Assembly: GCA_039811685.1 (NCBI GenBank)
Contig: JBDHZC010000005.1
Coordinates: 72,057 to 136,056, forward strand
DNA length: 64,000 bases
Direction of reading: 5' to 3'
Origin: Armatimonadota bacterium
Lineage (GTDB): Bacteria; Armatimonadota; UBA5829; DSUL01
The position numbers and the translations under genes were made by a program. Shown here piece after piece: positions 1 to 11,129 of this stretch. The first letter of the stretch is position 1, and every line of letters starts with the position of its first letter. The notes beneath the pieces are model-generated. The model saw only the letters and a program-made list of their open reading frames with translations. It ran no database searches and was not told the origin of the DNA.

Positions 1-111
1 GATGCCTTGAGTGGGTTCTTTACGCCGACGGGTCAGTCCGGCTACTACCTCTACAAGAAGCAGTCGCCCAGCGACGTGCGGCTGGAAGGAAGAGAAGTTC
101 CGTACCCGTAG
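1..111 (+). CDS. Small peptide, 5'-truncated at window edge (…DALSGFFTPTGQSGYYLYKKQSPSDVRLEGREVPYP*); paralog of the peptide at 4820..4939
   Basis: Reading frame from position 1 to TAG at 109-111. It is 85-90% identical at nt and aa level to the 39-aa ORF at 4820..4939, which lies just downstream of an E element. The flanks are also duplicated. Confidence 0.35.
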   Translation, partial: DALSGFFTPTGQSGYYLYKKQSPSDVRLEGREVPYP

Positions 112-135
112 CGCCTATCGGCGAAAGAGGATGAA

Positions 136-1128
136 ATGTTTCGACAGTTGATCTGGTTTGTCACAGCAGCGCTCCCTTTGCTCGCACTTGTGCTCGCCGC
201 GGCCGCGTGCGGTGCAAGCGATATTCCGGTCGCTGTGCCCGCCCCCGGAGAGCCGCCTGTTCTGTTCGCTGCCGAGTCAGCAGGTGTGCTCTACACGGCA
301 ACTCTGGAGGCGGACAAGCGCGTTGCGGTCATCGCCGCCCTGCCGCTTGATCGAGTTGCGGAAAAACGGACTTACACAGTGCCGGTACCCGCTCTCGAAT
401 ACGAAAGTTTCCAGCGGCTCCGCTGGAGACTGGGCAGCGGATACGCGTGGCTGCTGCCAACGGTGCTGACGAATGGTGGCTTACGCCGCTACCCGATGTA
501 TCGCATTCCGCGCAGCGAACTCGACAAACTCCTCCACGGCAGTAACGAAGCCAGCGGAAGCGGCTTGAAAGACATGTGGTTTCCGCCGGGCTTTGCGCCA
601 CTCACACGCGCGGACGATGAATCCGGGGTGAAAGGGCAGCCGATCTACGGAGACTTCTACCCTATCTCTACATCAGCTATCCGGCAGTTCATTTTGCAGG
701 GCAGCGTACTGAGCGTCTGGGACTACATCGGAAACCCAGACGCCAAGCGGCCTGGGGGAAGTGACAGAGACCTCACTCCCGTGGCTGACCGAGAGCGGTA
801 CTTCAACTGGGTCCGCGTGGTGAAGCTGAAGGCGCCTTTTACGGAGTCCTTCCACGCGTTTCCTCAGAAGGGCGGGTTCCTGCTGGTTACGGACTCCGGC
901 GCGCTCTACTCCATCACGGGCATCAGCACCGGTACTCCAGCGATACGCAGGGTGGATCTGGGCGACGAGCAGATCAGGGTTATCGTGCAGACGGAGGGTG
1001 GATCGGCCATTGCGGCGACGCAGACGAAGCGCCTCGATCTGTCCTCGGCGCCGAAGCTGTCGCCGCTTTCGCATCCGCACAGCTCACCGACGGCTGCGGC
1101 CCTTGAGCTGGCCAAAGCGCTGAAGTAG
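136..1128 (+). CDS. Secreted protein/putative lipoprotein, P-family paralog (330 aa)
   Basis: ATG with upstream GAGGA. N-terminal hydrophobic signal with LAAAAC lipobox-like motif. Near-identical copy at 4964..5956. C-terminus …LELAKALK is shared with 3400..4482 and 7300..8325. Confidence 0.6.
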   Translation: MFRQLIWFVTAALPLLALVLAAAACGASDIPVAVPAPGEPPVLFAAESAGVLYTATLEADKRVAVIAALPLDRVAEKRTYTVPVPALEYESFQRLRWRLGSGYAWLLPTVLTNGGLRRYPMYRIPRSELDKLLHGSNEASGSGLKDMWFPPGFAPLTRADDESGVKGQPIYGDFYPISTSAIRQFILQGSVLSVWDYIGNPDAKRPGGSDRDLTPVADRERYFNWVRVVKLKAPFTESFHAFPQKGGFLLVTDSGALYSITGISTGTPAIRRVDLGDEQIRVIVQTEGGSAIAATQTKRLDLSSAPKLSPLSHPHSSPTAAALELAKALK

Positions 1129-1181
1129 TAGCGGGGTCGGCCGCGCTCAGTGAAGGAAGTCAGCCATCGCGGAGTCAAAGA

Positions 1182-1358
1182 ATGGAGAAACAAGTAGCTC
1201 AGGCGCAGCAAACCGTTCTGACTCTTGAAGCTGCGACAGCTACCTGCGCCGATTGGAAGCAGTGGTGGGCCGAGAACCAGAGCCAGTTTCAGTCCGGCAC
1301 CAGGAGCAAAGCTGAAGCTGCGGCCTTCGAACCAGCCGAACCCGCAACGGAGCAGTAG
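1182..1358 (+). CDS. W-module small protein (58 aa, MEKQVAQAQQTVLTLEAATATCADWKQWWAENQSQF…)
   Basis: ATG 1182 preceded by a conserved GAAGGAAG-containing leader. Homologous to the ORF at 8379..8555 and to the C-terminal ~50 aa of the HEAT protein at 6209..7165. Ends at the TAG that begins E copy 1. Confidence 0.45.
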   Translation: MEKQVAQAQQTVLTLEAATATCADWKQWWAENQSQFQSGTRSKAEAAAFEPAEPATEQ

Positions 1359-1461
1359 CGGAGGAACAGCGCTTCATCCGCGCAGGTGTCCTCACCTGCG
1401 CATAGAATTGGCGAATCTTTCACCCACTGGCTCCAGGTGGGGACATCTGGAGAGATGTAAA
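1356..1461 (+). repeat. E element copy 1 (~105 nt structured repeat: 5' arm agcggaggaacagcgcttcatcc, hairpin 1, spacer, hairpin 2, GGAGAG-ATG-TAA)
   Basis: One of six near-identical copies. Hairpin 1 is gcgcaggtg-tcct-cacctgcgc at 1380..1401. Hairpin 2 is ctccag-N10-ctggag at 1431..1452. ATG 1455-1457 is followed immediately by TAA. Confidence 0.8.
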
Positions 1462-1553
1462 TGGGGGCCCTTCTGCCAGACTGGGACGATGATGATCCCA
1501 ATCTGAACGGGGCGGAGAACGAGGACCTGGACCAGGTGACACGCGTCGAATGA
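1461..1553 (+). CDS. Acidic small peptide (30 aa, MGALLPDWDDDDPNLNGAENEDLDQVTRVE)
   Basis: Its ATG directly abuts the TAA of the E minimal uORF (ATGTAAATG). Its stop TGA 1551-1553 overlaps ATG 1550-1552 (ATGA). Coding status is uncertain. Confidence 0.3.
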   Translation: MGALLPDWDDDDPNLNGAENEDLDQVTRVE

Positions 1554-1561
1554 GGAGACCA

Positions 1562-3034
1562 ATGGTTTACAATGGAGTTATGGTCGTCGCCCGGCAGAAA
1601 GGCCCTGCCGGCCACTATGCAGCTGTCCTCGCGATAGCCGCATTCGTGTCCGCAGTGTGTGCTGCACAAGCGGCGTGCGAACTGCCAACTCACGGTTGGG
1701 AGTTCACAGTCGCAGCGGAGCACACGCCGGCTGTAGCGATCAGTAGAGACGGCTCGCGCATCGCCGTTTCCGACTGGGCGGCCATCTATCTACTTGACCG
1801 GCAGGGCAAGGTGCTGTGGACCGCGAAGGCGCCACCGAAGAGTGGCTTCGGAGTGACCGCCATCTCTGACACCGGCCATCGTGTGCTGTGCTGGAAGATT
1901 CGGCGCCTCCCAAGTGTGGACAACGAGGATATCGACTACAACGCGGTGCTCTTCAACGGCGCCAACGGGCAGGTGCTGACCGAGATCGAGCTGGACGGGG
2001 GCCGAGTGCCGACGGCGCTGTCTGGCGATGGACGGTATATTCTGGCGGGCTATCCGCCGGACGGCCTGGGCCTGGAAATGGCAGCACAGCCTGATCCCGC
2101 CAACTACCTCATGCTCTTAGATGACACCGGCAAGACCGTCTGGCGCTCAGACAAGCTTGCCCAAAAGCCCGTTGTCGGAGCGGCTTACGGCTTTTTATCC
2201 CACACCGGTTCCTATGCGCTGCTCGGCGCAAAAGACCGCCTGAACCTTGTGACCATCGGCGGCTATCACCTTTTCGACATTGCACTGACGTCAGACCCTG
2301 CCGTTTCCGCCGACGCTGACTTGATCATGATGGGCGCCACACCCGTGTTGTCCACAGACGTTCAGAAGTATGAGACCGCATGGCCTGTTGTCGCGCCACA
2401 GGGTGAGCAAGAGCCGCAGACATGGGGCCATGAGTCCTTTGGCTTCAAGACGTACACTGCAGCCGCGGCGCTCGCCTTGGTCCGCGTCGGGGATGTGGCC
2501 GAGGAGTCGCCTCCCCCGAACCGGCGGCATCCCTTTGCGGAGCTGGTGTGGGCGCATGGCGAGATCTGGGCGGGAAACCGGGAACGAGTGCTGGATGCGC
2601 CGAAGCTTCCGCCCATTCCCGCCGGTAATCCTGGACGGCGCGGGGTTGCCTACGGATCGGCTGGGCTGCTGGCAATTGTCGACCACACGCTGTTGGCGGC
2701 AGAGCTTGGGCAGGAGCACGCGGTGAAGTTGCTACGCCTGCCAGGGCTGGGGATTGTGAAAAGGGTCGGCGTGTCCAGCAACGCTTCCCGCGCCTACACT
2801 CTCGTCGCCGTCCCCGCTGGGTCCGATCTAGTGGGACGCGGCCCCAGCACGGGTTCGGCGGCTTCCGCTCTTGTCTGCACCGTCTGGGACAGGTCTGCCA
2901 AACCTGTTGCAACAATGCCTCTTTCAGAGCAGGAGAGGCCCTTCGCGATAGCCTTCTCCCACGCAGGCGATCTCCTGATCCTAGCGTGGAAGGGTAAGGT
3001 GCAGGCGTTCGAGATCGGAGGCGTCGCCAGGTAA
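1562..3034 (+). CDS. Secreted beta-propeller-like (PQQ/WD40-like repeat) protein
   Basis: 494-aa ORF; ATG 1562 preceded by GAGGAG at good spacing (alternative ATG 1550). Hydrophobic N-terminus and repeated …DG..IAVSD/…LLD.QGKVLW-like strands. It occupies the same position as the P-family genes between E copies 1 and 2. Confidence 0.5.
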   Translation: MVYNGVMVVARQKGPAGHYAAVLAIAAFVSAVCAAQAACELPTHGWEFTVAAEHTPAVAISRDGSRIAVSDWAAIYLLDRQGKVLWTAKAPPKSGFGVTAISDTGHRVLCWKIRRLPSVDNEDIDYNAVLFNGANGQVLTEIELDGGRVPTALSGDGRYILAGYPPDGLGLEMAAQPDPANYLMLLDDTGKTVWRSDKLAQKPVVGAAYGFLSHTGSYALLGAKDRLNLVTIGGYHLFDIALTSDPAVSADADLIMMGATPVLSTDVQKYETAWPVVAPQGEQEPQTWGHESFGFKTYTAAAALALVRVGDVAEESPPPNRRHPFAELVWAHGEIWAGNRERVLDAPKLPPIPAGNPGRRGVAYGSAGLLAIVDHTLLAAELGQEHAVKLLRLPGLGIVKRVGVSSNASRAYTLVAVPAGSDLVGRGPSTGSAASALVCTVWDRSAKPVATMPLSEQERPFAIAFSHAGDLLILAWKGKVQAFEIGGVAR

Positions 3035-3237
3035 CCCGGGTCGAGAACCCAATGCAGTTGACTTACTACGCCGACTGGAACTCAGAGACCGTAGCGATGG
3101 CCGGACTGCTTGCCGGAGGGGACGGCCAGTGCGGCTCCGCCTCAGGCGCAGCACGACGGCCTGGAGGGCCCGGCCTAGCAGCAGATGGTCGCCTGTCTCA
3201 CGGATATGAAGACCGCGCTGGGGTGTCCCCAGGCTAT

Positions 3238-3328
3238 GCTTCATCCGCGCAGGTGTCCTCACCTGCGCATAGAATTGGCGAGTCCTTCGCCCACTGGCTC
3301 CAGATGGGGACACCTGGAGAGATGTAAA
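3238..3328 (+). repeat. E element copy 2 (5' arm degenerate)
   Basis: gcttcatccgcgcaggtgtcctcacctgcgcatagaattggcgagtccttcgcccactggctccagatggggacacctggagagatgtaaa, with ATG 3322-3324 and TAA 3325-3327. The upstream 200 nt look like a decayed W-module. Confidence 0.75.
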
Positions 3329-3399
3329 GCTCGACCTGATATCGAGTGACGTAGCCGGCAGGGAAGCCTCGTATCCATAGCGTTAGAAGGAGTCACTAG

Positions 3400-4482
3400 A
3401 TGAAGATCACCGCTGTTGCCAAAGCTCTTCTTGTCTGTTGGTTGGCGGTCGACGCCGTCAGCCCTGCCGTCGCCGAGAGCTATCTATTCAGTGAAGAGAC
3501 GAAGCACCCCCTGATCGTCCAGCGCCCGCTGACAGGCATACTGGTTGATGAGACTATGTACACTCTCTCGATCGCGCCAGAGTCGGGCTATGCGCCTGTA
3601 CTGACGGAGACGCCGATGACCGCGCTTGCCGCGCCTGTCAGCTACGCTCTCACCGCAGTAGCCGACGCCAGACGCCCGGCCTTTCCTGTTCACTGGTCGC
3701 TGCGTGGAGGTTTTGTTTGGACGTTGACTGAGTCCGATACGCCGCTGAGTGGCATAGTGCCGTTTTACTTCAGTCTTCAGCGGACTGCGCTGACTGGCCT
3801 GGAGCCGTGTGCCGCAGCCACCACGCATGTGGTCAAGCCCGGTACTGTTGCCGATGTGTGGCACGCTCATCTGGCTAAGTGGGAGCGTGTCGCTTTCACT
3901 GAGCCCGAGACGCTGAACGACGCGACGCGGGCCGCCCGGCCTCCCGAGGTACCCTATCCTCTTGCCGCTATCGTGGTGACGGGACCGGTGACCGTCCAGC
4001 TTTTCCAGTTGACCGCCCCACATATGATGGGATGGGAGTACCGTGGGCCGGAGAAGCCTCGGCGGTGGAAAGCCGCGTTTGGGCCGGGGATGGCGCCGAT
4101 CTCTCCCGAGAGTCAGCGGGGCGTGCCTCTCAAGGAGCGTACTCACTCCGGCGACTGGTGGCGCATAGGGATGTTCGACGTTCCCTTCAGCGAGGCCTAG
4201 GAAGTGGCCAAGGTCGAAGGTACCTACTACGCCGTGACACAGAGCGGAGAGGTTTTCTCTCTGGGCGACCTTACCGGGAAAGTAAAGAAGATCGACATAG
4301 GAGGCAGACGTGTGACGGCGATTCTGACGCTGGAGGAGAGCGGAAAGGTGTATCTTTGTTCGCATGAGGACTACGCGCCGCTGTCGGATTCGCCTGGATT
4401 CAAATCCATTCCTGGAGGACACCCAGACGTCACCAGATCGGCAACGCAGTGCCTGCTGGACCTGGCGAAGGCGTTGAACTAG
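3400..4482 (+). pseudogene. P-family paralog interrupted by a single in-frame TAG (3400..4200 plus 4204..4482 in the same frame)
   Basis: Signal peptide at N-terminus. The last ~90 aa (…GGRRVTAILTLEESGKVYLCSHEDYAPLSDSPGFKSIPGGHPDVTRSATQCLLDLAKALN) are near-identical to the C-terminus of 7300..8325. TAG at 4198-4200 is in frame and flanked by homologous sequence on both sides. Confidence 0.5.
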
Positions 4483-4538
4483 CGCAGGGACTGCCATCCG
4501 CACGCAGTGAAGGAAGGCAGCCATCGCGGAGTCAAAGA

Positions 4539-4716
4539 ATCGAGAAATGAGCGGCTCAGGCGCAGTAAAGCGATCTGAATCTGAAGGCCGCGGAAGCTGC
4601 CAGGTCCGATTGGGAGCAGTGGCGGGCAGAGGACCAGAGCCAGTTTCAGTCCGGCACCAAGATCAAAGCTGAGGCTGGCGCACCCTCGATGTCGCCCGGC
4701 CCCGCGGCTCAGCCGT
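4539..4716 (+). pseudogene. W-module small ORF, degenerate copy (start ATG to ATC, internal TAA)
   Basis: Aligns to 1182..1358 and 8379..8555. Start codon mutated (aatCgagaa), stop within 'cagtaaagc', and a diverged middle. The 3' end …WEQWRAEDQSQFQSGTKIKAEAGAPSMSPGPAAQP* is retained. Confidence 0.5.
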
Positions 4717-4818
4717 AGCGGAGGAACAGCGCTTCATCCGTGCAGATGAGCGCATCTGCGCATAGAATTGGCGAATCTTTCACCCACTGGCTCCAGGTGG
4801 GGACACTTGGAGAGATGT
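4716..4818 (+). repeat. E element copy 3
   Basis: Hairpin 1 gtgcagatg-agcg-catctgcgc is a compensatory variant. Hairpin 2 is ctccag…cttggag. ATG 4815-4817 is followed by TGA, which overlaps the ATG of the next ORF (ATGTGATG). Confidence 0.8.
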
Positions 4819-4819
4819 G

Positions 4820-4939
4820 ATGCAAGACGATGCGTTGAGCGGGTTCTTTAGGCCGGCGGGTCAGTCCGGCTACTACCTCTACAAGAAGCAGTCGCCCAGC
4901 GATGTGCGGCTGCAAGATACTGAAGTTCCGTACCCGTAG
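4820..4939 (+). CDS. Small peptide (39 aa, MQDDALSGFFRPAGQSGYYLYKKQSPSDVRLQDTEVPYP)
   Basis: ATG overlaps the stop of the E minimal uORF. Conserved in the duplicate at window start (1..111), with mostly conservative changes. Confidence 0.4.
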   Translation: MQDDALSGFFRPAGQSGYYLYKKQSPSDVRLQDTEVPYP

Positions 4940-4963
4940 CGCCTATCGGCGAAAGAGGATGAA

Positions 4964-5956
4964 ATGTTTCGACAGTTGATCTGGTTTGTCACAGCAGCGC
5001 TCCCTTTGCTCGCACTTGTGCTCGCCGCGGCCGCGTGCGGTGCAAGCGATATTCCGGTCGCTGTGCCCGCCCCCGGAGAGCCGCCTGTTCTGTTCGCTGC
5101 CGAGTCAGCAGGTGTGCTCTACACGGCAACTCTGGAGGCGGACAAGCGCGTTGCGGTCATCGCCGCCCTGCCGCTTGATCGAGTTGCGGAAAAACGGACT
5201 TACACAGTGCCGGTACCCGCTCTCGAATACGAAAGTTTCCAGCGGCTCCGCTGGAGACTGGGCAGCGGATACGCGTGGCTGCTGCCAACGGTGCTGACGA
5301 ATGGTGGCTTACGCCGCTACCCGATGTATCGCATTCCGCGCAGCGAACTCGACAAACTCCTCCACGGCAGTAACGAAGCCAGCGGAAGCGGCTTGAAAGA
5401 CATGTGGTTTCCGCCGGGCTTTGCGCCACTCACACGCGCGGACGATGAATCCGGGGTGAAAGGGCAGCCGATCTACGGAGACTTCTACCCTATCTCTACA
5501 TCAGCTATCCGGCAGTTCATTTTGCAGGGCAGCGTACTGAGCGTCTGGGACTACCGCGGAAACCCAGACGCCAAGCGGCCTGCGGAAAGTGACAGAGACC
5601 TCACTCCCGTGGCTGACCGAGAGCATTACTTCGACTGGGTCCGCGTGGTGAAGCTGGAGGCGCCTTTCACGGAGTCCTTCCACGCGTTTCCTCAGAAGGG
5701 CGGGTTCCTGCTGGTTACGGACTCCGGCGCGCTCTACTCCGTCGCGGGCATCAGCACCGGCACTCCAGCGATACGCAGGGTGGATCTGGGCGACGAGCAG
5801 ATCAGAGTTATCGTGCAGACGGAGGGTGGATCGGCCATTGCGGCGACGCAGACGAAGCGCCTCGAGCTGTCCTCGGCGCCGAAGCTGTCGCCGCTTTCGC
5901 ATCCGCACAGCTCACCGACGGCTGCGGCCCTCGATCTGGCCAAAGCGCTGAAGTAG
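4964..5956 (+). CDS. Secreted protein/putative lipoprotein, P-family paralog (330 aa); recent duplicate of 136..1128
   Basis: About 97% aa identity to 136..1128. The upstream 140 nt are also duplicated. Followed directly by TAGTAG and E copy 4; the W-module ORF is absent here. Confidence 0.6.
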   Translation: MFRQLIWFVTAALPLLALVLAAAACGASDIPVAVPAPGEPPVLFAAESAGVLYTATLEADKRVAVIAALPLDRVAEKRTYTVPVPALEYESFQRLRWRLGSGYAWLLPTVLTNGGLRRYPMYRIPRSELDKLLHGSNEASGSGLKDMWFPPGFAPLTRADDESGVKGQPIYGDFYPISTSAIRQFILQGSVLSVWDYRGNPDAKRPAESDRDLTPVADREHYFDWVRVVKLEAPFTESFHAFPQKGGFLLVTDSGALYSVAGISTGTPAIRRVDLGDEQIRVIVQTEGGSAIAATQTKRLELSSAPKLSPLSHPHSSPTAAALDLAKALK

Positions 5957-6062
5957 TAGCGGGGGAACAGCGCTTCATCCGCGCAGATGAGCTCATCTGC
6001 GCAAAGCATTGGCGAGTCCTTCACCCACTGGCTCCAGGTGGGGACACCTGGAGAGATGTAAA
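5957..6062 (+). repeat. E element copy 4
   Basis: Hairpin 1 is gcgcagatg-agct-catctgcgc. ATG 6056-6058 and TAA 6059-6061. Confidence 0.8.
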
Positions 6063-6071
6063 GCGACGTTC

Positions 6072-6212
6072 GTGGCGGCAATCAACCAGGAGAGGATCGC
6101 GGGTGATAAGGATTACGAGGAGCAGGCCTACGGCGCGGAGGCCGTGTGCGAAATGGACCTGCTGGAGGAGACGTGCGCGTACGTCACGCCGCCATGTGAG
6201 GCGTGTCCATGA
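6072..6212 (+). CDS. Acidic 4-Cys small peptide A (…DKDYEEQAYGAEAVCEMDLLEETCAYVTPPCEACP); start codon uncertain (GTG 6072?)
   Basis: Open frame from the E element to TGA 6210-6212, which overlaps ATG 6209 of the HEAT gene (ATGA). Homologous to peptide B at 8660..8782 with pattern C-x8-C-x6/7-C-x2-C. Confidence 0.4.
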   Translation: MAAINQERIAGDKDYEEQAYGAEAVCEMDLLEETCAYVTPPCEACP

Positions 6213-7165
6213 CCATGGTATGCAGTCCTAGAACGGAGGTCGTTTTGAAACTCTTTATTGTGCTACTGCTTGCTGCTGCTCTTTGTGTTACGGCAATATC
6301 CGAGGGTGCGTCGGCCGAGCGCACGTGTGCCGCCACCAGGTATTACCGCTCCACGGTTTCTGAGTTGGTCGGGCTGCTTTCGAGTGGGCTGTCTATCGAC
6401 CGGTTCGACGCGGCTCTCGAACTCGGGCGGCGAGGCGATGTGTCAGTGATCCCTGCAATGAAGGCTGCGCTTGGCGATCCGGAGCGTTTCGTGCGGATGC
6501 GGATAGCTGCTGCGCTGCTGGATCTCGGCGATCGAAGCGGCGTGGAGGTACTTCACGAAGTTGTTACGTCGGGTGAGCCCTACTGGAGTCTGGCAGCGGC
6601 GGAGGTGCTTGCCCATCACGGTGACACCTTTGGCCGTGATCTCATCAGGAAGGCTCACTCTTCGAGCAGTTGGGTCGCTCGCTCCTCAGCCTTAAGGGCC
6701 TCGGCCGACCTTCCGGAGGGGCCGCCCTACGACGCCGTGGCTGCCGGACTGGAGGACTCGCAGCAGATTGTCCGCTTGACCGCCCTGAGGGCTGCTCAAA
6801 TGTGCCATGACCCCCGGGTGAAGGATCTGGTCCGCAAGGCGTTGTCTTCTTCCGATACGCTTCTGAGGGCGCGCGCGGCCATCATAATTGCGGAGGAGGG
6901 GCAGCCCGCAGACATTCCGGCTCTGATAGCGCTGTTGACAGCTCCGGATGGGGTTACCCGTTCTGCCGTTCTCAGAGCACTGCAGTCGCTGACGGGGCGT
7001 GCTTCTCCGTCGAAAACCGTTCTGACTCTTAAGGCTGCGACAGCTATCCGCGCTGAGTGGGAGCAGTGGTGGGCCGAGAACCAGAGCCAGTTCCCGCCTG
7101 GTACCAAGATCAAAGCTGAGGCTGGCGCACCCTCGGTGTCGCCCGGACCCGCGGCTCAGCCGTAG
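6209..7165 (+). CDS. Secreted HEAT-repeat (PBS-lyase/E-Z type) protein with C-terminal W-module
   Basis: Signal peptide (LKLFIVLLLAAALCV). Tandem repeats of the …LG(D)xxxxxxLxxxLxDxxxxVRxxAAxAL… type. The last ~50 aa (KTVLTLKAATAIRAEWEQWWAENQSQFPPGTKIKAEAGAPSVSPGPAAQP) match the free-standing W-module ORFs. GTG 6203 is an alternative start. Confidence 0.6.
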   Translation: MTMVCSPRTEVVLKLFIVLLLAAALCVTAISEGASAERTCAATRYYRSTVSELVGLLSSGLSIDRFDAALELGRRGDVSVIPAMKAALGDPERFVRMRIAAALLDLGDRSGVEVLHEVVTSGEPYWSLAAAEVLAHHGDTFGRDLIRKAHSSSSWVARSSALRASADLPEGPPYDAVAAGLEDSQQIVRLTALRAAQMCHDPRVKDLVRKALSSSDTLLRARAAIIIAEEGQPADIPALIALLTAPDGVTRSAVLRALQSLTGRASPSKTVLTLKAATAIRAEWEQWWAENQSQFPPGTKIKAEAGAPSVSPGPAAQP

Positions 7166-7267
7166 CGGAGGAACAGCGCTTCATCCGTGCAGAGGAGCGC
7201 ATCTGCGCATGGACTTGGCGAATCTTTCGCCCACTGGCTCCAGATGGGGACACCTGGAGAGATGTAA
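7163..7267 (+). repeat. E element copy 5
   Basis: Starts at the TAG of the HEAT gene. Hairpin 1 gtgcagagg-agcg-catctgcgc has one mismatch. ATG 7262-7264 and TAA 7265-7267. Confidence 0.8.
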
Positions 7268-7299
7268 GTCGCGAATACTGAGCGCAACTGAGATGCACA

Positions 7300-8325
7300 A
7301 TGAGAAGCAAAGGACACAGTAAAATGAGGGTACGGAAACGGCCTCTTCTTCTTCTCTTCGGAGTCCTACTTGTCACCACTCCACCAGCTGTCGGGCAGCC
7401 GTCTCCTGGTGTTCGCCTACGTCCTGGTCAAAGCCAACTGGTGCAGACTCCGCTGACGGCCTCTTCACGTGCGGGCGTTCTTTACACAGTGATCATTGAC
7501 AAAGGGCGTGCCTTGCTGCGGCAGACGCCTCTTGATACTTCATCGCCCGTTCGCTTCGCAAGTCTGGAGTCCTCCAGCCGTTTGACCGGTATCGGCCCGA
7601 TGTTTCCAGCGCATTGGGGACTTGCAGACGGCTTCCTTTGGTCGCTGGTTCTTGAAGAAGGAGACGCATACTGGGCCAGCCCACATCTAAGCCGCTTCGC
7701 GCTGGAGGACATGCGTCTCGTGGACCCGGACAACGCCCTTCCGCCTCGAGGCGCGCACCGCACAAGGCGCACAGAAGTCCCCCCGTATCCTCTCCTGGAT
7801 GCCATCGCGGAAGGGTCAAACCGTGACTTACTGGTCTTCCCCGCGCTTCAGCCCCTGTCGCGCAAATCCGTCCGCCTGTTCGTGCTGCAGCCGCCCGTGC
7901 TGACGGTATGGGTGAACGAAGACCCCGCGCTTTTCGCACCACGAACGTCCGGACGCAGCGTCGAAGGACGCGTGAAGGAAAAGGGCAGGATTGAGAACTG
8001 GTTGAAGGTTGCGTCTATCAGTGTTCCTTTCGCCGAGCCTTTCGAAGTTGTTGGGTGCGGTTCCGTCTGCTACTTCATCACAGGAAGCGGGGACCTCTAT
8101 GCAGATAAAGATCTGAAGGCAAGTCCGCAGAAGATCGACACAGGAGGCAGGCGCGTGACGGCGATTCTGACGCTGGAGGAGAGCGGAAAGGTGTATCTTT
8201 GTTCGCACGAGGACTACGCGCCGCTGTCGGATTCGCCTGGATTCAAATCCATTCCTGGAGGTCACCCAGGCGTCACCAGGTCGGCAACGCAGTGCCTGCT
8301 GGACCTGGCCAAAGCGCTGAAGTAG
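7300..8325 (+). CDS. Secreted protein, P-family paralog (341 aa)
   Basis: Basic N-terminus followed by a hydrophobic signal (RPLLLLFGVLLVTTPPAVG). Middle region recognisably homologous to 3400..4200. C-terminal 90 aa near-identical to 4204..4482, ending LLDLAKALK. Alternative start at 7324. Confidence 0.6.
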   Translation: MRSKGHSKMRVRKRPLLLLFGVLLVTTPPAVGQPSPGVRLRPGQSQLVQTPLTASSRAGVLYTVIIDKGRALLRQTPLDTSSPVRFASLESSSRLTGIGPMFPAHWGLADGFLWSLVLEEGDAYWASPHLSRFALEDMRLVDPDNALPPRGAHRTRRTEVPPYPLLDAIAEGSNRDLLVFPALQPLSRKSVRLFVLQPPVLTVWVNEDPALFAPRTSGRSVEGRVKEKGRIENWLKVASISVPFAEPFEVVGCGSVCYFITGSGDLYADKDLKASPQKIDTGGRRVTAILTLEESGKVYLCSHEDYAPLSDSPGFKSIPGGHPGVTRSATQCLLDLAKALK

Positions 8326-8378
8326 TAGCGGGGTCGGCCGCGCTCAGTGAAGGAAGTCAGCCATCGCGGAGTCAAAGC

Positions 8379-8555
8379 ATGGAGAAACGAGCGGCTCAGG
8401 CGCAGCAAACCGTTCTGACTCTTAAAGCTGCGACAGCTATCCGCTCCGATTGGGAGCAGTGGTGGGCCGAGAACCAGAGCCAGTTCCCGCCTGGCGCCAA
8501 GATCAAAGCTGAGGCCGCACCCCCGGCGTCGCCCGGACCCGCGGCTCAGCCGTAG
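8379..8555 (+). CDS. W-module small protein (58 aa, MEKRAAQAQQTVLTLKAATAIRSDWEQWWAENQSQFPPGAKIKAEAAPPASPGPAAQP)
   Basis: Same conserved leader (cagtgaaggaagtcagccatcgcggagtcaaag) and ATG context as 1182..1358. Ends at the TAG that starts E copy 6. Confidence 0.45.
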   Translation: MEKRAAQAQQTVLTLKAATAIRSDWEQWWAENQSQFPPGAKIKAEAAPPASPGPAAQP

Positions 8556-8659
8556 CGGTGGAACAGCGCTTCACCCGTGCAGAGGAGCGCATCTGCGCAT
8601 TGAATTGGCGCATCTTTCGCCCACTGGCTCCAGGTGGGGACATCTGGAGAGATGTAAAC
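8553..8659 (+). repeat. E element copy 6
   Basis: Hairpin 1 is gtgcagagg-agcg-catctgcgc. ATG 8652-8654 and TAA 8655-8657. Carries an internal TGA in the frame that is open in the other copies. Confidence 0.8.
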
Positions 8660-8782
8660 AAACAACGTGATGAAGAAGAAGCGTACTCCGAACAGGAGAT
8701 GTGCGAGAGGCTTACGTTGGACGACTGGTGTACATTTGGTATCCACGGGCCCTGCACGGCGTGCGATGATCTCAATGACTAG
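8660..8782 (+). CDS. Acidic 4-Cys small peptide B (…RDEEEAYSEQEMCERLTLDDWCTFGIHGPCTACDDLND); start codon unresolved
   Basis: Homolog of peptide A with the same Cys spacing and the conserved EE.AY…C.E motif. Ends at TAG 8780-8782, 20 nt upstream of the second HEAT gene. The only in-frame ATG is at 8699; the homology extends upstream of it. Confidence 0.35.
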   Translation, partial: KQRDEEEAYSEQEMCERLTLDDWCTFGIHGPCTACDDLND

Positions 8783-8801
8783 CAAGATGATGGAGGAAAG
8801 A

Positions 8802-9716
8802 ATGACGAAGATGGTAGCGCTGGTTCTAATCTGCGGGTGGTTCGGCTGGGGTGGTGTCTGTGCTGCGGGGCCGGCTACCCCTGTCACCGCCACAAATGGC
8901 TCAGCGACTCGTTCACCGGATTGTGACGAGGCGAGTGTCCCTGAATTGATTGCCATCCTTCGTGAGCGTGGAACCTTTGCTGTCCGTGCAGCACAGCTCC
9001 TTGCGGATCGCCACGCGACGTCTGCAATTCCGGATCTCGCGCTGTTGTTGACGGATCCGAAAATCTCTCTGCGGATAAATGCGGCGCGTGCAATGGCGCT
9101 CCTGGGAGACCGGAGCGGGTTACCAGTGCTGCGGGCGGCGCTGACAGAGGGTGACGATTTCCACGCCTCTATCGCGGCCGCTTTTCTGGCGCAGCTTGGC
9201 GACGACAGTGGGCGCGCGGTTTTGGAGAGGGAACTCAGTAGTCAAAACTGGATCGACCGGAGGCAGGCCCTGTACGCATTGGCGCTTCTTCCGGATGGTC
9301 TGTCTGATGTGGCTGTTGCAGCGGCTCTAGAGGACGAAAGGCCGGAGGTACAAAGAAGCGCGTTTCGTGTGGCCTGGAAAAATGCGTCTGATAGGGTGCG
9401 GGAGGTGTTGATTAAAAAGACACAGTCCCCGGATCCGCTTACCCGCTGGCGGGCGACTGAGGCCCTGTTTATGAGTAACCCGCACCGAAACGCAGAGATT
9501 GCTATTGGCATGATTACGGATCCGGACCGCCTCGTACAGGGACAAACATCCATGATGCTGGCGCATTTCTCCCGTGTGGCTGTGCCTCGGGTGAGCGGGT
9601 GGATGAGGAGTGCCGAGCGGGCAAGAGATCTCAAGCAGGCGTATCTGGAGTGGCTGGCGGTTAACAGGGACGTGGCGTTCCCGCCAACCGAGCCGGCGCC
9701 GCCTGCACCGCAATAG
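8802..9716 (+). CDS. Secreted HEAT-repeat (PBS-lyase type) protein with a diverged native W-like C-terminus
   Basis: GGAGG then ATG 8802. Signal peptide (MTKMVALVLICGWFGWGGVCAAG). HEAT repeats (…AARAMALLGDRSGLPVLRAAL…). C-terminal QAYLEWLAVNRDVAFPP resembles AIRAEWEQWWAENQSQFPP. An in-frame upstream ATG at 8667 would add a non-signal extension. Confidence 0.6.
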   Translation: MTKMVALVLICGWFGWGGVCAAGPATPVTATNGSATRSPDCDEASVPELIAILRERGTFAVRAAQLLADRHATSAIPDLALLLTDPKISLRINAARAMALLGDRSGLPVLRAALTEGDDFHASIAAAFLAQLGDDSGRAVLERELSSQNWIDRRQALYALALLPDGLSDVAVAAALEDERPEVQRSAFRVAWKNASDRVREVLIKKTQSPDPLTRWRATEALFMSNPHRNAEIAIGMITDPDRLVQGQTSMMLAHFSRVAVPRVSGWMRSAERARDLKQAYLEWLAVNRDVAFPPTEPAPPAPQ

Positions 9717-9765
9717 CAGCGGCTGCGAGCGGGCAAACGCTCATTCAGTCGGAGATACGCACGCA

Positions 9766-9797
9766 AAAGTAAGGGGGCAGCCGGTTGGCCGCCCCCA
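9766..9797. terminator. Putative bidirectional intrinsic terminator hairpin between convergent genes
   Basis: gggggcagccggttggccgccccc, a GC-rich imperfect stem-loop between the + gene ending at 9716 and the − gene ending at 9829. No strong U-tract. Confidence 0.3.
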
Positions 9798-9828
9798 ATT
9801 GCTTGAATCACGCTGTGGATGAGACGCT

Positions 9829-10719
9829 CTACACCCGCTTGCGGCGAACCACCCCTGCCAGTGATACCAGGCCGGCTCCCAGCGCGAGCAGGGAACCCGG
9901 CTCAGGCACCAGCGTCAGCGAGAAGTCATCAAAGTAGCCAGTCTGGCTTCCGAACTTTGAGTTCACTTCTATAACATTGTAGCCGTAGTTGAGCACGGAA
10001 TTATGAGTCAGCGTCGGATTCACCATGTCGTCAATGTAGAACCAGACGTCGTTTGTGCCGTCGCCGAGCGCAGGCCCAACCACGATGCGCGCCTGATGCC
10101 AACCAACGCTTCTGCTGGTGCTGGTGTTGAACCATCCGTTAGGGCCGCCGTAGCCGTCGCTGGACCCGACAACGCGAGCCTGATACTTGCTGGTATCCCC
10201 GGTGCTTTGCGCTCCCAGTGAAAGCCGCTGGATCTTGCTGGCGCCGGCGTTCAGGCTGCCCGATCCAGGATAGTCAGTGCCGGAAGGCGCCGTGTTGTAA
10301 TAGCCAAGAGCGACGTAGTCCTTGAAGTTGCCGTCACCCGCGCCACCGACGTCGTAGAACCACCAGTCGAGCGTCAGATTCCCGGTAAAGACGTTGCCGC
10401 CGTTGAAGCGATAGGCGATATTCAACCAGTTCTGGTCAATGTCTGCCCCGCCTACGAAGGCTCCGCGAAGCATGTGGTCACCACTGTGGGGCGTGACGCC
10501 GCTGTCGGTCGAAACTACCTGTCCGTTTGGCGGGTTGGGGCCGAACCAGGGGTTGCCGGACCCGTTTGGCGCCGAGTTCGCGCCACCGGGGGCATTCTTG
10601 TCGAGCGCGCCGATATTGGCGCCCTCAAATCCGTCTGTAAAGACGGGAGCCGCCTGCGCCGTGAAAGCTGTGGCCACAACCAAAAGTCCCACCGCGCAGA
10701 GGAGCATTCCTCTTTTCAT
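9829..10719 (-). CDS. PEP-CTERM sorting-domain secreted protein
   Basis: Start MKRGMLLCAVGLLVVATAFTAQA (signal peptide). C-terminal VPEPGSLLALGAGLVSLAGVVRRKRV is a PEP-CTERM motif plus TM helix plus basic tail. Confidence 0.65.
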   Translation of the reverse strand: MKRGMLLCAVGLLVVATAFTAQAAPVFTDGFEGANIGALDKNAPGGANSAPNGSGNPWFGPNPPNGQVVSTDSGVTPHSGDHMLRGAFVGGADIDQNWLNIAYRFNGGNVFTGNLTLDWWFYDVGGAGDGNFKDYVALGYYNTAPSGTDYPGSGSLNAGASKIQRLSLGAQSTGDTSKYQARVVGSSDGYGGPNGWFNTSTSRSVGWHQARIVVGPALGDGTNDVWFYIDDMVNPTLTHNSVLNYGYNVIEVNSKFGSQTGYFDDFSLTLVPEPGSLLALGAGLVSLAGVVRRKRV

Positions 10720-11129
10720 ACTTTCTCCTTCTGTCTGCCTGCAGTCAGCCGATCTTACGCCGGCTTGCACTCTAGCAGTACACAAACGTACTTAATTTAG
10801 AATATCACTGCGTACTTATAGAGTCAACTGGTAATTTGGTGTCAAAATCTCATCCTTTTTCCAGGTGAAGCGCAGAAAGCGCAGGATGCCTTTACTGTTG
10901 CGCGACCGGACCGGTGTCTGACGTATTTGCATTCGGATTGCGCTAAGGCCACCGCCCGTGGTATACTCCTGCGTCTGTGAAAGTCGTCACAGGCTTTGCA
11001 CTTACAGAGACGATGGCCACTTCTTGAGGGCAGAGCCAGCGCAACAGAGTTCCACAGACACATAGTTGAGGGTGGAATCAGAACCACGGCCGACTGTGGC
11101 AACTCCGCCTGCTGCTCGTAAATGCTCGC

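Follow-up and report, generated by a model that had tools for sequence, protein, structure and literature searches.

We describe a tandem gene array at the start of a 64-kb stretch of DNA (the window) from an uncultured Armatimonadota bacterium. The array occupies positions 1 to 9716, with its upstream end beyond the window, and comprises at least seven same-strand cassettes for exported proteins. A tryptophan-rich segment of about 50 codons, the W-module, recurs in it both as the 3' end of a gene for a HEAT-repeat protein and as free-standing open reading frames (ORFs) of 58 amino acids (aa) behind other genes. Because DNA identity among the copies jumps at fixed points and one copy is a mosaic, we think that this distribution probably arose by gene conversion and unequal recombination within the one locus, and not through a mobile element or a sorting tag. 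The patchwork is real, if fairly ordinary, and is known from this species alone.

Copies of the W-module

The cassettes are, in order, gene A1 with the free module c1; a gene for a 494-aa protein; B' with c3; A2; a cysteine-rich ORF with the gene for the HEAT-repeat protein HEAT1, whose tail is module copy c5; B with c6; and a second cysteine-rich ORF with HEAT2. The array thus holds members of one exported-protein family (A/B), the 494-aa protein, and two pairs of a Cys-rich ORF and a HEAT protein. Copies of a 111-nucleotide (nt) repeat, E, lie between the cassettes. Four module copies are clear, namely two intact ORFs, one disabled ORF and the tail of HEAT1 (tblastn E values of 1e-21 to 1e-37 within the window):

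1129-1181, plus strand: leader of c1, 53 nt, with GGAG 7 nt upstream of the ATG; starts with TAGCGGGG, an 8-mer that also opens E
1182-1358, plus strand: c1, free W-module ORF of 58 aa behind A1, with a diverged tail (FQSGTRSKAEAAAFEPAEPATEQ); NCBI IT209_02475
4539-4716, plus strand: c3, disabled W-module behind B'
7016-7165, plus strand: c5, W-module as the last ~50 codons of HEAT1, a predicted helix (residues 274-294) with a disordered Pro/Ala tail
8379-8555, plus strand: c6, free W-module ORF of 58 aa behind B, with its leader at 8326-8378; NCBI IT209_02430

A preliminary description of this DNA, made from the sequence alone, had reported two conserved free ORFs with a conserved leader. Our comparison agrees: c1 and c6 both encode 58 aa, and their 53-nt leaders, measured from the upstream stop codon to the ATG, are identical at 52 positions. 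The ORFs themselves differ at 33 of 174 nt (19%). In the predicted free product, MEKRAAQAQQ precedes TVLTLKAATAIR, where HEAT1 instead has the context GRASPSK-TVLTL. The c3 copy was said to have lost its start and gained a stop; we indeed found ATC in place of ATG and two in-frame stops, TGA at codon 4 and TAA at codon 10. The fusion to HEAT1 was also confirmed. DNA homology between the HEAT1 tail and the free copies begins sharply at about 7016 and runs to the stop codon, with 92% identity to positions 8409-8547 of c6. Copies c1, c5 and c6 share an identical 30-nt core, GCAGTGGTGGGCCGAGAACCAGAGCCAGTT, in which not even a synonymous change is seen. In all four copies, the TAG stop codon sits in the first bases of E.

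A further decayed remnant had been proposed at 3040-3237, in the spacer between the 494-aa gene and its E copy (3035-3217, plus strand). We found no support for it: one word of 13 to 16 nt (CTCAGGCGCAGCA) is common to this spacer and the module, and a second, 12-nt word is out of order.

Probable exchange of tracts within the array

Which genes carry the free modules? The A/B family and the 494-aa gene are laid out as follows:

136-1128, plus strand: A1, 330-aa exported protein, recent duplicate of A2 and paralogue of B
1550-3034, plus strand: gene for the 494-aa protein, no module, E2 downstream
3400-4482, plus strand: B', paralogue of B, with an in-frame TAG (4198-4200) that breaks it
4964-5956, plus strand: A2, second 330-aa gene, no module, E4 directly downstream
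5949-5964, plus strand: junction of the A2 stop and E4, with TAGTAGCGGGG joined directly to GAACAG; the 222-nt leader and module are absent
7300-8325, plus strand: B, 341-aa exported protein with the same C-terminal LDLAKALK helix as A

The preliminary description took the host genes to be unrelated. They are not: the three hosts of free modules (A1, B' and B) form one paralogous family with a C-terminal helix ending in LDLAKALK, and the A and B proteins are 28% identical (E value, 5e-18). Since the hosts are one family, a single capture of the module followed by duplication and conversion would be enough. A2 and A1 are identical in DNA mid-gene and 90 to 98% identical towards both ends (97% over the first 300 nt compared).

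The proposal that the free copies were placed or renewed by recombination held up. When the A1 and B units are compared, DNA identity rises from about 40% upstream to 97 to 100% over a stretch that starts with the last 8 host codons and extends across the leader to the middle of the module. Such steps lie at 1107 (A1 unit against B unit), at about 4300 (B' against B) and at about 7016 (HEAT1 against the B unit). B' and B are only 44% identical overall as proteins, and yet over the last ~200 nt of B' (4286-4482) their DNA agrees at 94%, which looks like another conversion tract. Copy c3 is mosaic: its middle resembles c1, and its 3' end, with an extra GCTGGC, resembles HEAT1. In A2, the 222-nt leader and module are missing exactly between two AGTAGCGG repeats, and contigs from three other samples in the Logan collection contain the same junction. 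In a Logan contig of another sample, possibly chimeric, a c6-type module follows an A gene, which also speaks for recombination. These direct repeats flank the 222-nt leader-module block, and the 8-mer is the start of E.

We propose the following history; its order of events and its copying direction are inferred. In one illegitimate event, the last ~49 HEAT codons and E would have been placed behind a gene of the A/B family. Unrelated sequence at the join, about 85 nt long, would have contributed a Shine-Dalgarno sequence, an ATG and 10 new codons, giving the 58-codon ORF. The resulting block would consist of the last 8 A/B codons, the leader, the module and E. Because it has homology on both flanks, in the A/B 3' end and in E, this block would be open to gene conversion and unequal crossing-over. 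It would then have been copied or refreshed among old paralogues, have exchanged tracts with the HEAT1 3' end, and have been deleted once, in A2, between the two 8-nt repeats. One copy, c3, would have decayed together with its broken partner gene B'.

The module had been called mobile. We abandoned that reading: terminal repeats are absent, no recombinase is in view, and copies beyond the 9-kb locus or the species were not found. A transposable element, including a miniature inverted-repeat transposable element, was rejected: the ends, read by eye, have no terminal inverted repeats, and there are no copies elsewhere in the window or in public collections. A diversity-generating retroelement was rejected as well, as differences fall at A in only 1 of 8, 3 of 31 and 3 of 30 cases and are not adenine biased. 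The annotated genes of the ~9 kb downstream include no recombinase, and the Pfam matches listed for them include no reverse transcriptase domain, the scan for the latter having covered only that part of the window. No intI integrase is annotated in the same ~9 kb; upstream, the array extends beyond the window.

Searches for the module elsewhere, by word index, by a HMMER profile against 1.84 billion representative proteins and by a back-translated scan of JGI metagenomes, returned proteins of its own genome only. The HEAT2 match in the HMMER search is circular because the HEAT2 tail was in the profile. A search with HEAT1 gave self matches only and was saturated by 8000 generic HEAT candidates; a homology search with the A/B family likewise gave only self matches. 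As searched, all components of the array (module, A/B family, E and Cys-rich ORFs) are restricted to one uncultured Armatimonadota species.

The module is the tail of a HEAT protein

The two HEAT genes and the C-terminus of the second are these:

6209-7165, plus strand: HEAT1, secreted HEAT-repeat protein carrying the fused module
8802-9716, plus strand: HEAT2, second HEAT-repeat protein, no E downstream
9582-9716, plus strand: C-terminus of HEAT2, positional counterpart of the module (YLEWLAVNRDVAFPP)

Both proteins belong to the HEAT_2 family (PF13646), scoring 73.3 bits (HEAT1) and 74.3 bits (HEAT2) against a cut-off of 27.7. They align collinearly through the module (33% identity; E value, 4e-26), with WEQWWAENQ in one opposite YLEWLAVNR in the other. 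The description had given HEAT2 a diverged but related terminus. By position in the alignment this stands, but the terminus has no significant similarity of its own: the best pairwise E value of the HEAT2 tail against the module alone is 0.006, and a module profile built without that tail does not match it.

In an AlphaFold model of HEAT1 (mean predicted local distance difference test score [pLDDT], 77), the solenoid ends at about residue 262 and is followed by a short low-confidence linker. The module is then modeled as a single terminal helix at residues 274-294 (LTLKAATAIRAEWEQWWAENQ) in a block with pLDDT values of 78 to 86, and the Pro/Ala tail (302-318) is disordered. A structure search with the model found generic HEAT and alphaRep folds only. 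Collinearity of HEAT1 and HEAT2 through the module, and the position of the terminal helix after the last repeat, support the earlier suggestion that the module is native to the 3' end of the HEAT gene. For the same reasons, copying probably went from the HEAT gene to the free copies.

Is the module a sorting signal? Its Kyte-Doolittle maximum over 19 residues is 0.28 to 0.66, its hydrophobic moment on the same scale is low, and it has no transmembrane-like or hydrophobic segment. It matches no family in Pfam or NCBIfam, including the sorting-signal models (PEP-CTERM, LPXTG, GlyGly-CTERM and the type IX secretion C-terminal domain [T9SS CTD] class). As a control, the same searches did pick up the real PEP-CTERM protein that adjoins the array (9829-10785). 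With neither a transmembrane-like segment nor a family in Pfam or NCBIfam, the module is therefore the C-terminal helix and tail of a lineage-specific HEAT protein that bears a signal peptide, and not a known sorting signal.

The description had also offered a shared C-terminal tag. The module is fused only in HEAT1, and the free copies lie in the -1 frame behind TAGTAG. Could programmed -1 frameshifting over the leader still yield A/B-linker-W fusions resembling HEAT1? The module does lie in the -1 frame of the upstream gene, and this frame is open over the whole leader, where it would encode a Ser/Gly/Ala-rich linker (VVAGSAALSEGSQPSRSQ); in the c6 unit it is open from 8199. However, the last codons (CTG GCC AAA GCG CTG AAG TAG TAG) contain no slippery heptamer or homopolymer and end in a double stop. 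In the c1 unit, a TGA at 1104-1106 in the module frame leaves 7 codons for a shift. Eighteen stop-free codons are unremarkable at 60% G+C, and the leader has its own Shine-Dalgarno sequence and ATG. We regard such a frameshifted tag as extremely improbable.

Each HEAT gene overlaps a small, acidic ORF with four Cys that lies directly before it, at 6072-6212 (46 aa) and at about 8657-8782, both on the plus strand. The two ORFs contain EEQAYGAEAVCEMDLLEETCAYVTPPCEACP and EEEAYSEQEMCERLTLDDWCTFGIHGPCTACDDLND, respectively, and are homologous (tblastn E value of about 6e-5 within the window); ahead of its conserved part, the second lacks a canonical start codon. Neither matches Pfam or NCBIfam. 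Since both HEAT genes overlap homologous Cys-rich ORFs, the Cys-rich ORF and the HEAT gene look like a duplicated two-gene unit.

Repeat E lies between the genes of the whole array

The six copies of the 111-nt repeat E fall within ~9 kb and are 80 to 90% identical; no matches are expected by chance, and the rest of the 64 kb contains none:

1351-1461, plus strand: E1, after c1
3218-3328, plus strand: E2, after the 494-aa gene, truncated at its 5' end
4711-4821, plus strand: E3, after c3
5952-6062, plus strand: E4, after A2
7158-7268, plus strand: E5, the fifth copy, after HEAT1
8548-8658, plus strand: E6, after c6

E stands downstream of every cassette but the last, and two of its carriers, the 494-aa gene and A2 (junction at 5949-5964), have no module. 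The region after HEAT2 shows no similarity to E above that of shuffled sequences. The claim that the module is always directly followed by E therefore holds for the four clear copies and fails for HEAT2. The idea of the module plus E as one unit does not hold, as E also follows cassettes that have no module. We conclude that E is a spacer of the whole gene array and not a partner of the module.

The predicted fold of E is a long, imperfect hairpin and then a perfect one of 9 bp (CUCCAGGUG-GGGA-CAUCUGGAG), with z scores of -1.0 to -3.3 and one compensatory pair. GGAG lies in the 3' arm of this second hairpin, and an AUG-UAA start-stop comes next. The best-conserved part of the repeat is its 3' end, CCCACTGGCTCCAGRTGGGGACAYYTGGAGAGATGT, which comprises the hairpin that pairs GGAG with CUCC and then ATG-TAA. 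In E1 and E3, a second AUG 5 to 6 nt past GGAGAG opens small ORFs at 1461-1553 (30 aa) and 4823-4939 (39 aa). E may be a translational control element. We propose that it works between cistrons as an RNA element, masking a ribosome-binding site, and that the homology it offers for recombination is incidental.

Perhaps, then, the conserved block acts as nucleic acid and its ORF is incidental, either as a 3' untranslated or intercistronic RNA element or as a recombination signal that shuffles cassettes to diversify exported proteins? The leader and the module core are conserved in DNA without synonymous variation while the tail of the ORF drifts (57 to 73% identity), E folds into two hairpins that hide a Shine-Dalgarno sequence, and the locus is a patchwork of conversion tracts. 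However, the leader and module have no significant fold (z scores of -0.49 and -1.0; -1.05 for the c1 leader). Against Rfam 15, E gave no match at gathering scores in the 64 kb and none at an E value of 1 or below in positions 1 to 10000. Neither a recombinase nor a reverse transcriptase is seen among the annotated genes of the ~9 kb downstream, and the substitutions show no adenine bias. E has no attC core sites, and its region resembling the XerC arm of dif varies among copies. Recent gene conversion alone suffices to explain the identity at the DNA level. We hold a role as nucleic acid to be improbable.

Several other roles for E were rejected. It shows no coding constraint in any of the six frames. 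A minus-strand frame (YISPxVPTWSQW...) is open in six copies to the end of the shared sequence, with a ratio of nonsynonymous to synonymous polymorphism (pN/pS) of 1.4. In view of that value, a 66-aa minus-strand ORF that NCBI annotates through E6 (8546-8746) is most likely a spurious call. For readthrough of the module TAG into E, the frame is open in 5 of 6 copies, with a pN/pS of 1.5 and a stop in E6. Consensus scans place no promoter or terminator on E; a TAGAAT box is not conserved among the copies, and a sigma-54-like GG-N10-GC spacing, read by eye, is present in 3 of 6. The six aligned copies do not read as attC sites either, having no GTTRRRY at the 3' end and two local hairpins in place of an end-to-end palindrome. 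No copy of E was found in two scans of GTDB genomes and one metagenome scan, collections from which the source genome is evidently absent.

Is the 58-aa ORF a gene?

The preliminary description allowed that the free copies might be relics without a translation signal. This is not what we found: GGAG precedes an in-frame ATG by 7 nt in both intact copies, within ~85 nt not derived from the HEAT gene. The free ORFs might accordingly be real small-protein genes, born from the HEAT tail, coexpressed with the upstream A/B gene as one unit of two genes and needed for its function, for instance as a cytoplasmic partner or regulator. In keeping with this, the Shine-Dalgarno sequence and ATG are kept in both intact copies along with the nearly invariant leader, the ORF is intact in two copies of the window and over its first 34 codons in another sample, and the NCBI pipeline called both ORFs. 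The lone decayed copy, moreover, follows the lone A/B gene with a premature stop.

However, the ratio of nonsynonymous to synonymous substitution rates (dN/dS) in the module frame is 0.45 to 0.62, about 0.5, which is no lower than in several wrong frames, and no purifying selection is detectable. The intact copies differ from each other (19% of nt) about as much as either does from the disabled copy. As read from the sequence, the free ORFs encode no signal peptide, unlike HEAT1 and the A/B partners, whose N-termini resemble signal peptides (read by eye, with no predictor). A2 has no module, protein searches returned no homologue in other organisms, and the 30-nt core is identical in DNA with no synonymous change. 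We consider genes that serve the A/B partner unlikely, if clearly less so than the nucleic acid role above. We think it possible, with up to about an even chance, that the 58-aa product is translated and has some role.

Some of these observations weigh against our account of the array as a recombination patchwork. By a rough estimate, a Shine-Dalgarno sequence with an in-frame ATG would arise by chance in non-HEAT sequence with a probability of about 1%. As this is so improbable by chance, it suggests that the ORF was or still is selected for expression and is maybe more than a by-product. The sole disabled copy, c3, sits behind the sole broken A/B gene, B', which hints at a functional link. 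The copies are very few and closely related, so the selection tests have low power. Lastly, metagenome assemblies of repeats can be chimeric, and some of the fine mosaic detail is perhaps artefactual. This applies above all to Logan contig L002, from another sample, in which an A gene is joined to a c6-type module with the first 34 ORF codons intact; it spans the 53-nt stretch shared by two copies and is possibly itself chimeric.

A more elaborate possibility is that the array is a dedicated cassette-exchange locus, in which E would act both as a translational control point and as a recombination anchor, and the HEAT tail would be supplied either fused or in trans as the 58-aa peptide. If true, exported proteins would be re-paired with a common helix in a new way that is independent of any recombinase, but we judge this quite improbable, more so than the nucleic acid role.

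Support from other assemblies and samples

A second assembly (GCA_020846715.1; contig JADLDK010000010.1, reversed) matches the window and ends inside the repeat at about 1108. Over 16 kb the two differ by 7 single-nucleotide polymorphisms (SNPs), at 3033, 4377, 4645, 5010, 5170, 5179 and 6079, all inside the repeat region. They may reflect variation among strains, gene conversion or noise from assembling repeats, and their confinement to the repeat region fits the history proposed above. At 3033, A versus C determines whether the 494-aa gene has its stop codon there (494 versus 499 aa). Short Logan contigs from several other sequencing runs contain the same genes, reproduce the key junctions and break at the same repeats. 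Because the second NCBI contig and the Logan contigs agree, the architecture of the locus is independently reproduced, and the gene order is no assembly artefact. In one Logan contig from a different sample, another E tail is visible directly ahead of window position 1. The organism was detected in runs SRR35018966, SRR19427039, SRR19427073, SRR31740696, SRR31861156, SRR20729861, SRR35206414 and SRR17578869.

Other features of the array and its surroundings

The TAG within B' splits the gene into ORFs of 266 and 92 aa that NCBI annotates separately. The structure model of B is poor (pLDDT, 45.7), mostly beta-strand, and too poor for a fold search. Both A copies contain weak matches to the Rfam family naRNA4, at 432-492 and 5260-5320 on the plus strand (27 bits against a gathering score of 59.5; E value, 0.14), which are almost certainly due to chance.

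A G+C-rich hairpin terminator at 9773-9796 separates HEAT2 from the convergent PEP-CTERM gene (9829-10785, minus strand), beyond which lie Rex-like, histidine kinase and glycosyltransferase genes. Given these neighbors, the array abuts an exopolysaccharide/exosortase-type region.

Significance

This orphan locus, specific to one species, adds a new example of a known process. It illustrates that a short structured intercistronic repeat can make a gene array a recombination patchwork. Its sole feature of wider interest is the possible birth of a small-protein gene from the tail of another gene. If the 58-aa ORF is translated, this would be a clean and datable birth of such a gene from the 3' end of a larger one, with start signals drawn from junction sequence, and gene conversion would then have carried the new gene from paralogue to paralogue. 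In practical terms the value is limited: the components are confined to one uncultured Armatimonadota species, and no function can be assigned to any of them.

Comparison with known systems

Integron attC arrays also have short same-strand cassettes with a conserved repeat of ~110 nt between them that forms an imperfect hairpin. E, however, has neither the R''/R' core sites (RYYYAAC and GTTRRRY) nor end-to-end inverted symmetry. No integrase was seen, and several cassettes here are multigene, each gene with its own start signals.

The REP/BIME sequences (repetitive extragenic palindromes and bacterial interspersed mosaic elements) of Escherichia coli and the Correia elements of Neisseria may affect mRNA stability or processing and serve as recombination substrates. 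Like E, they are structured repeats between genes of one transcription unit. E differs in being limited, on present evidence, to one locus (6 copies within 9 kb and not one across the remaining 55 kb), in having no terminal inverted repeats, and in its hairpin-masked Shine-Dalgarno sequence followed by AUG.

Orphan toxin modules of rhs and cdiA are variable, have no start signals and are paired with immunity genes. There, too, displaced 3'-end fragments lie downstream of full genes, and homology permits recombination with the full-length gene. In our array, the fragment is instead the conserved part, carries a Shine-Dalgarno sequence and ATG, and stands behind genes of another family, and Pfam and NCBIfam show no toxin or immunity features.

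The pilE/pilS system of Neisseria, with its Sma/Cla repeat, resembles the array in having a conserved 3' coding segment and a noncoding repeat in all copies, with gene conversion among them. In contrast to pilE/pilS, there is no layout of an expression locus with silent copies here, the variable parts are whole unrelated genes, and no G-quadruplex (G4) or other recombination-initiating element was identified.

Tandem arrays of bacterial paralogues that undergo concerted evolution and gene conversion are likewise similar; Santoyo and Romero reportedly reviewed this general phenomenon in 2005. Our array departs from these in two respects. One homogenized tract is a HEAT tail fragment from another family, with start signals of its own, and the anchor is a structured 111-nt intercistronic repeat found in no other genome searched. 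What they have in common are the near-identical, sharp-edged tracts in old paralogues, the mosaic copies, the deletion and duplication of material between repeats, and the use of flanking repeats as anchors for recombination.

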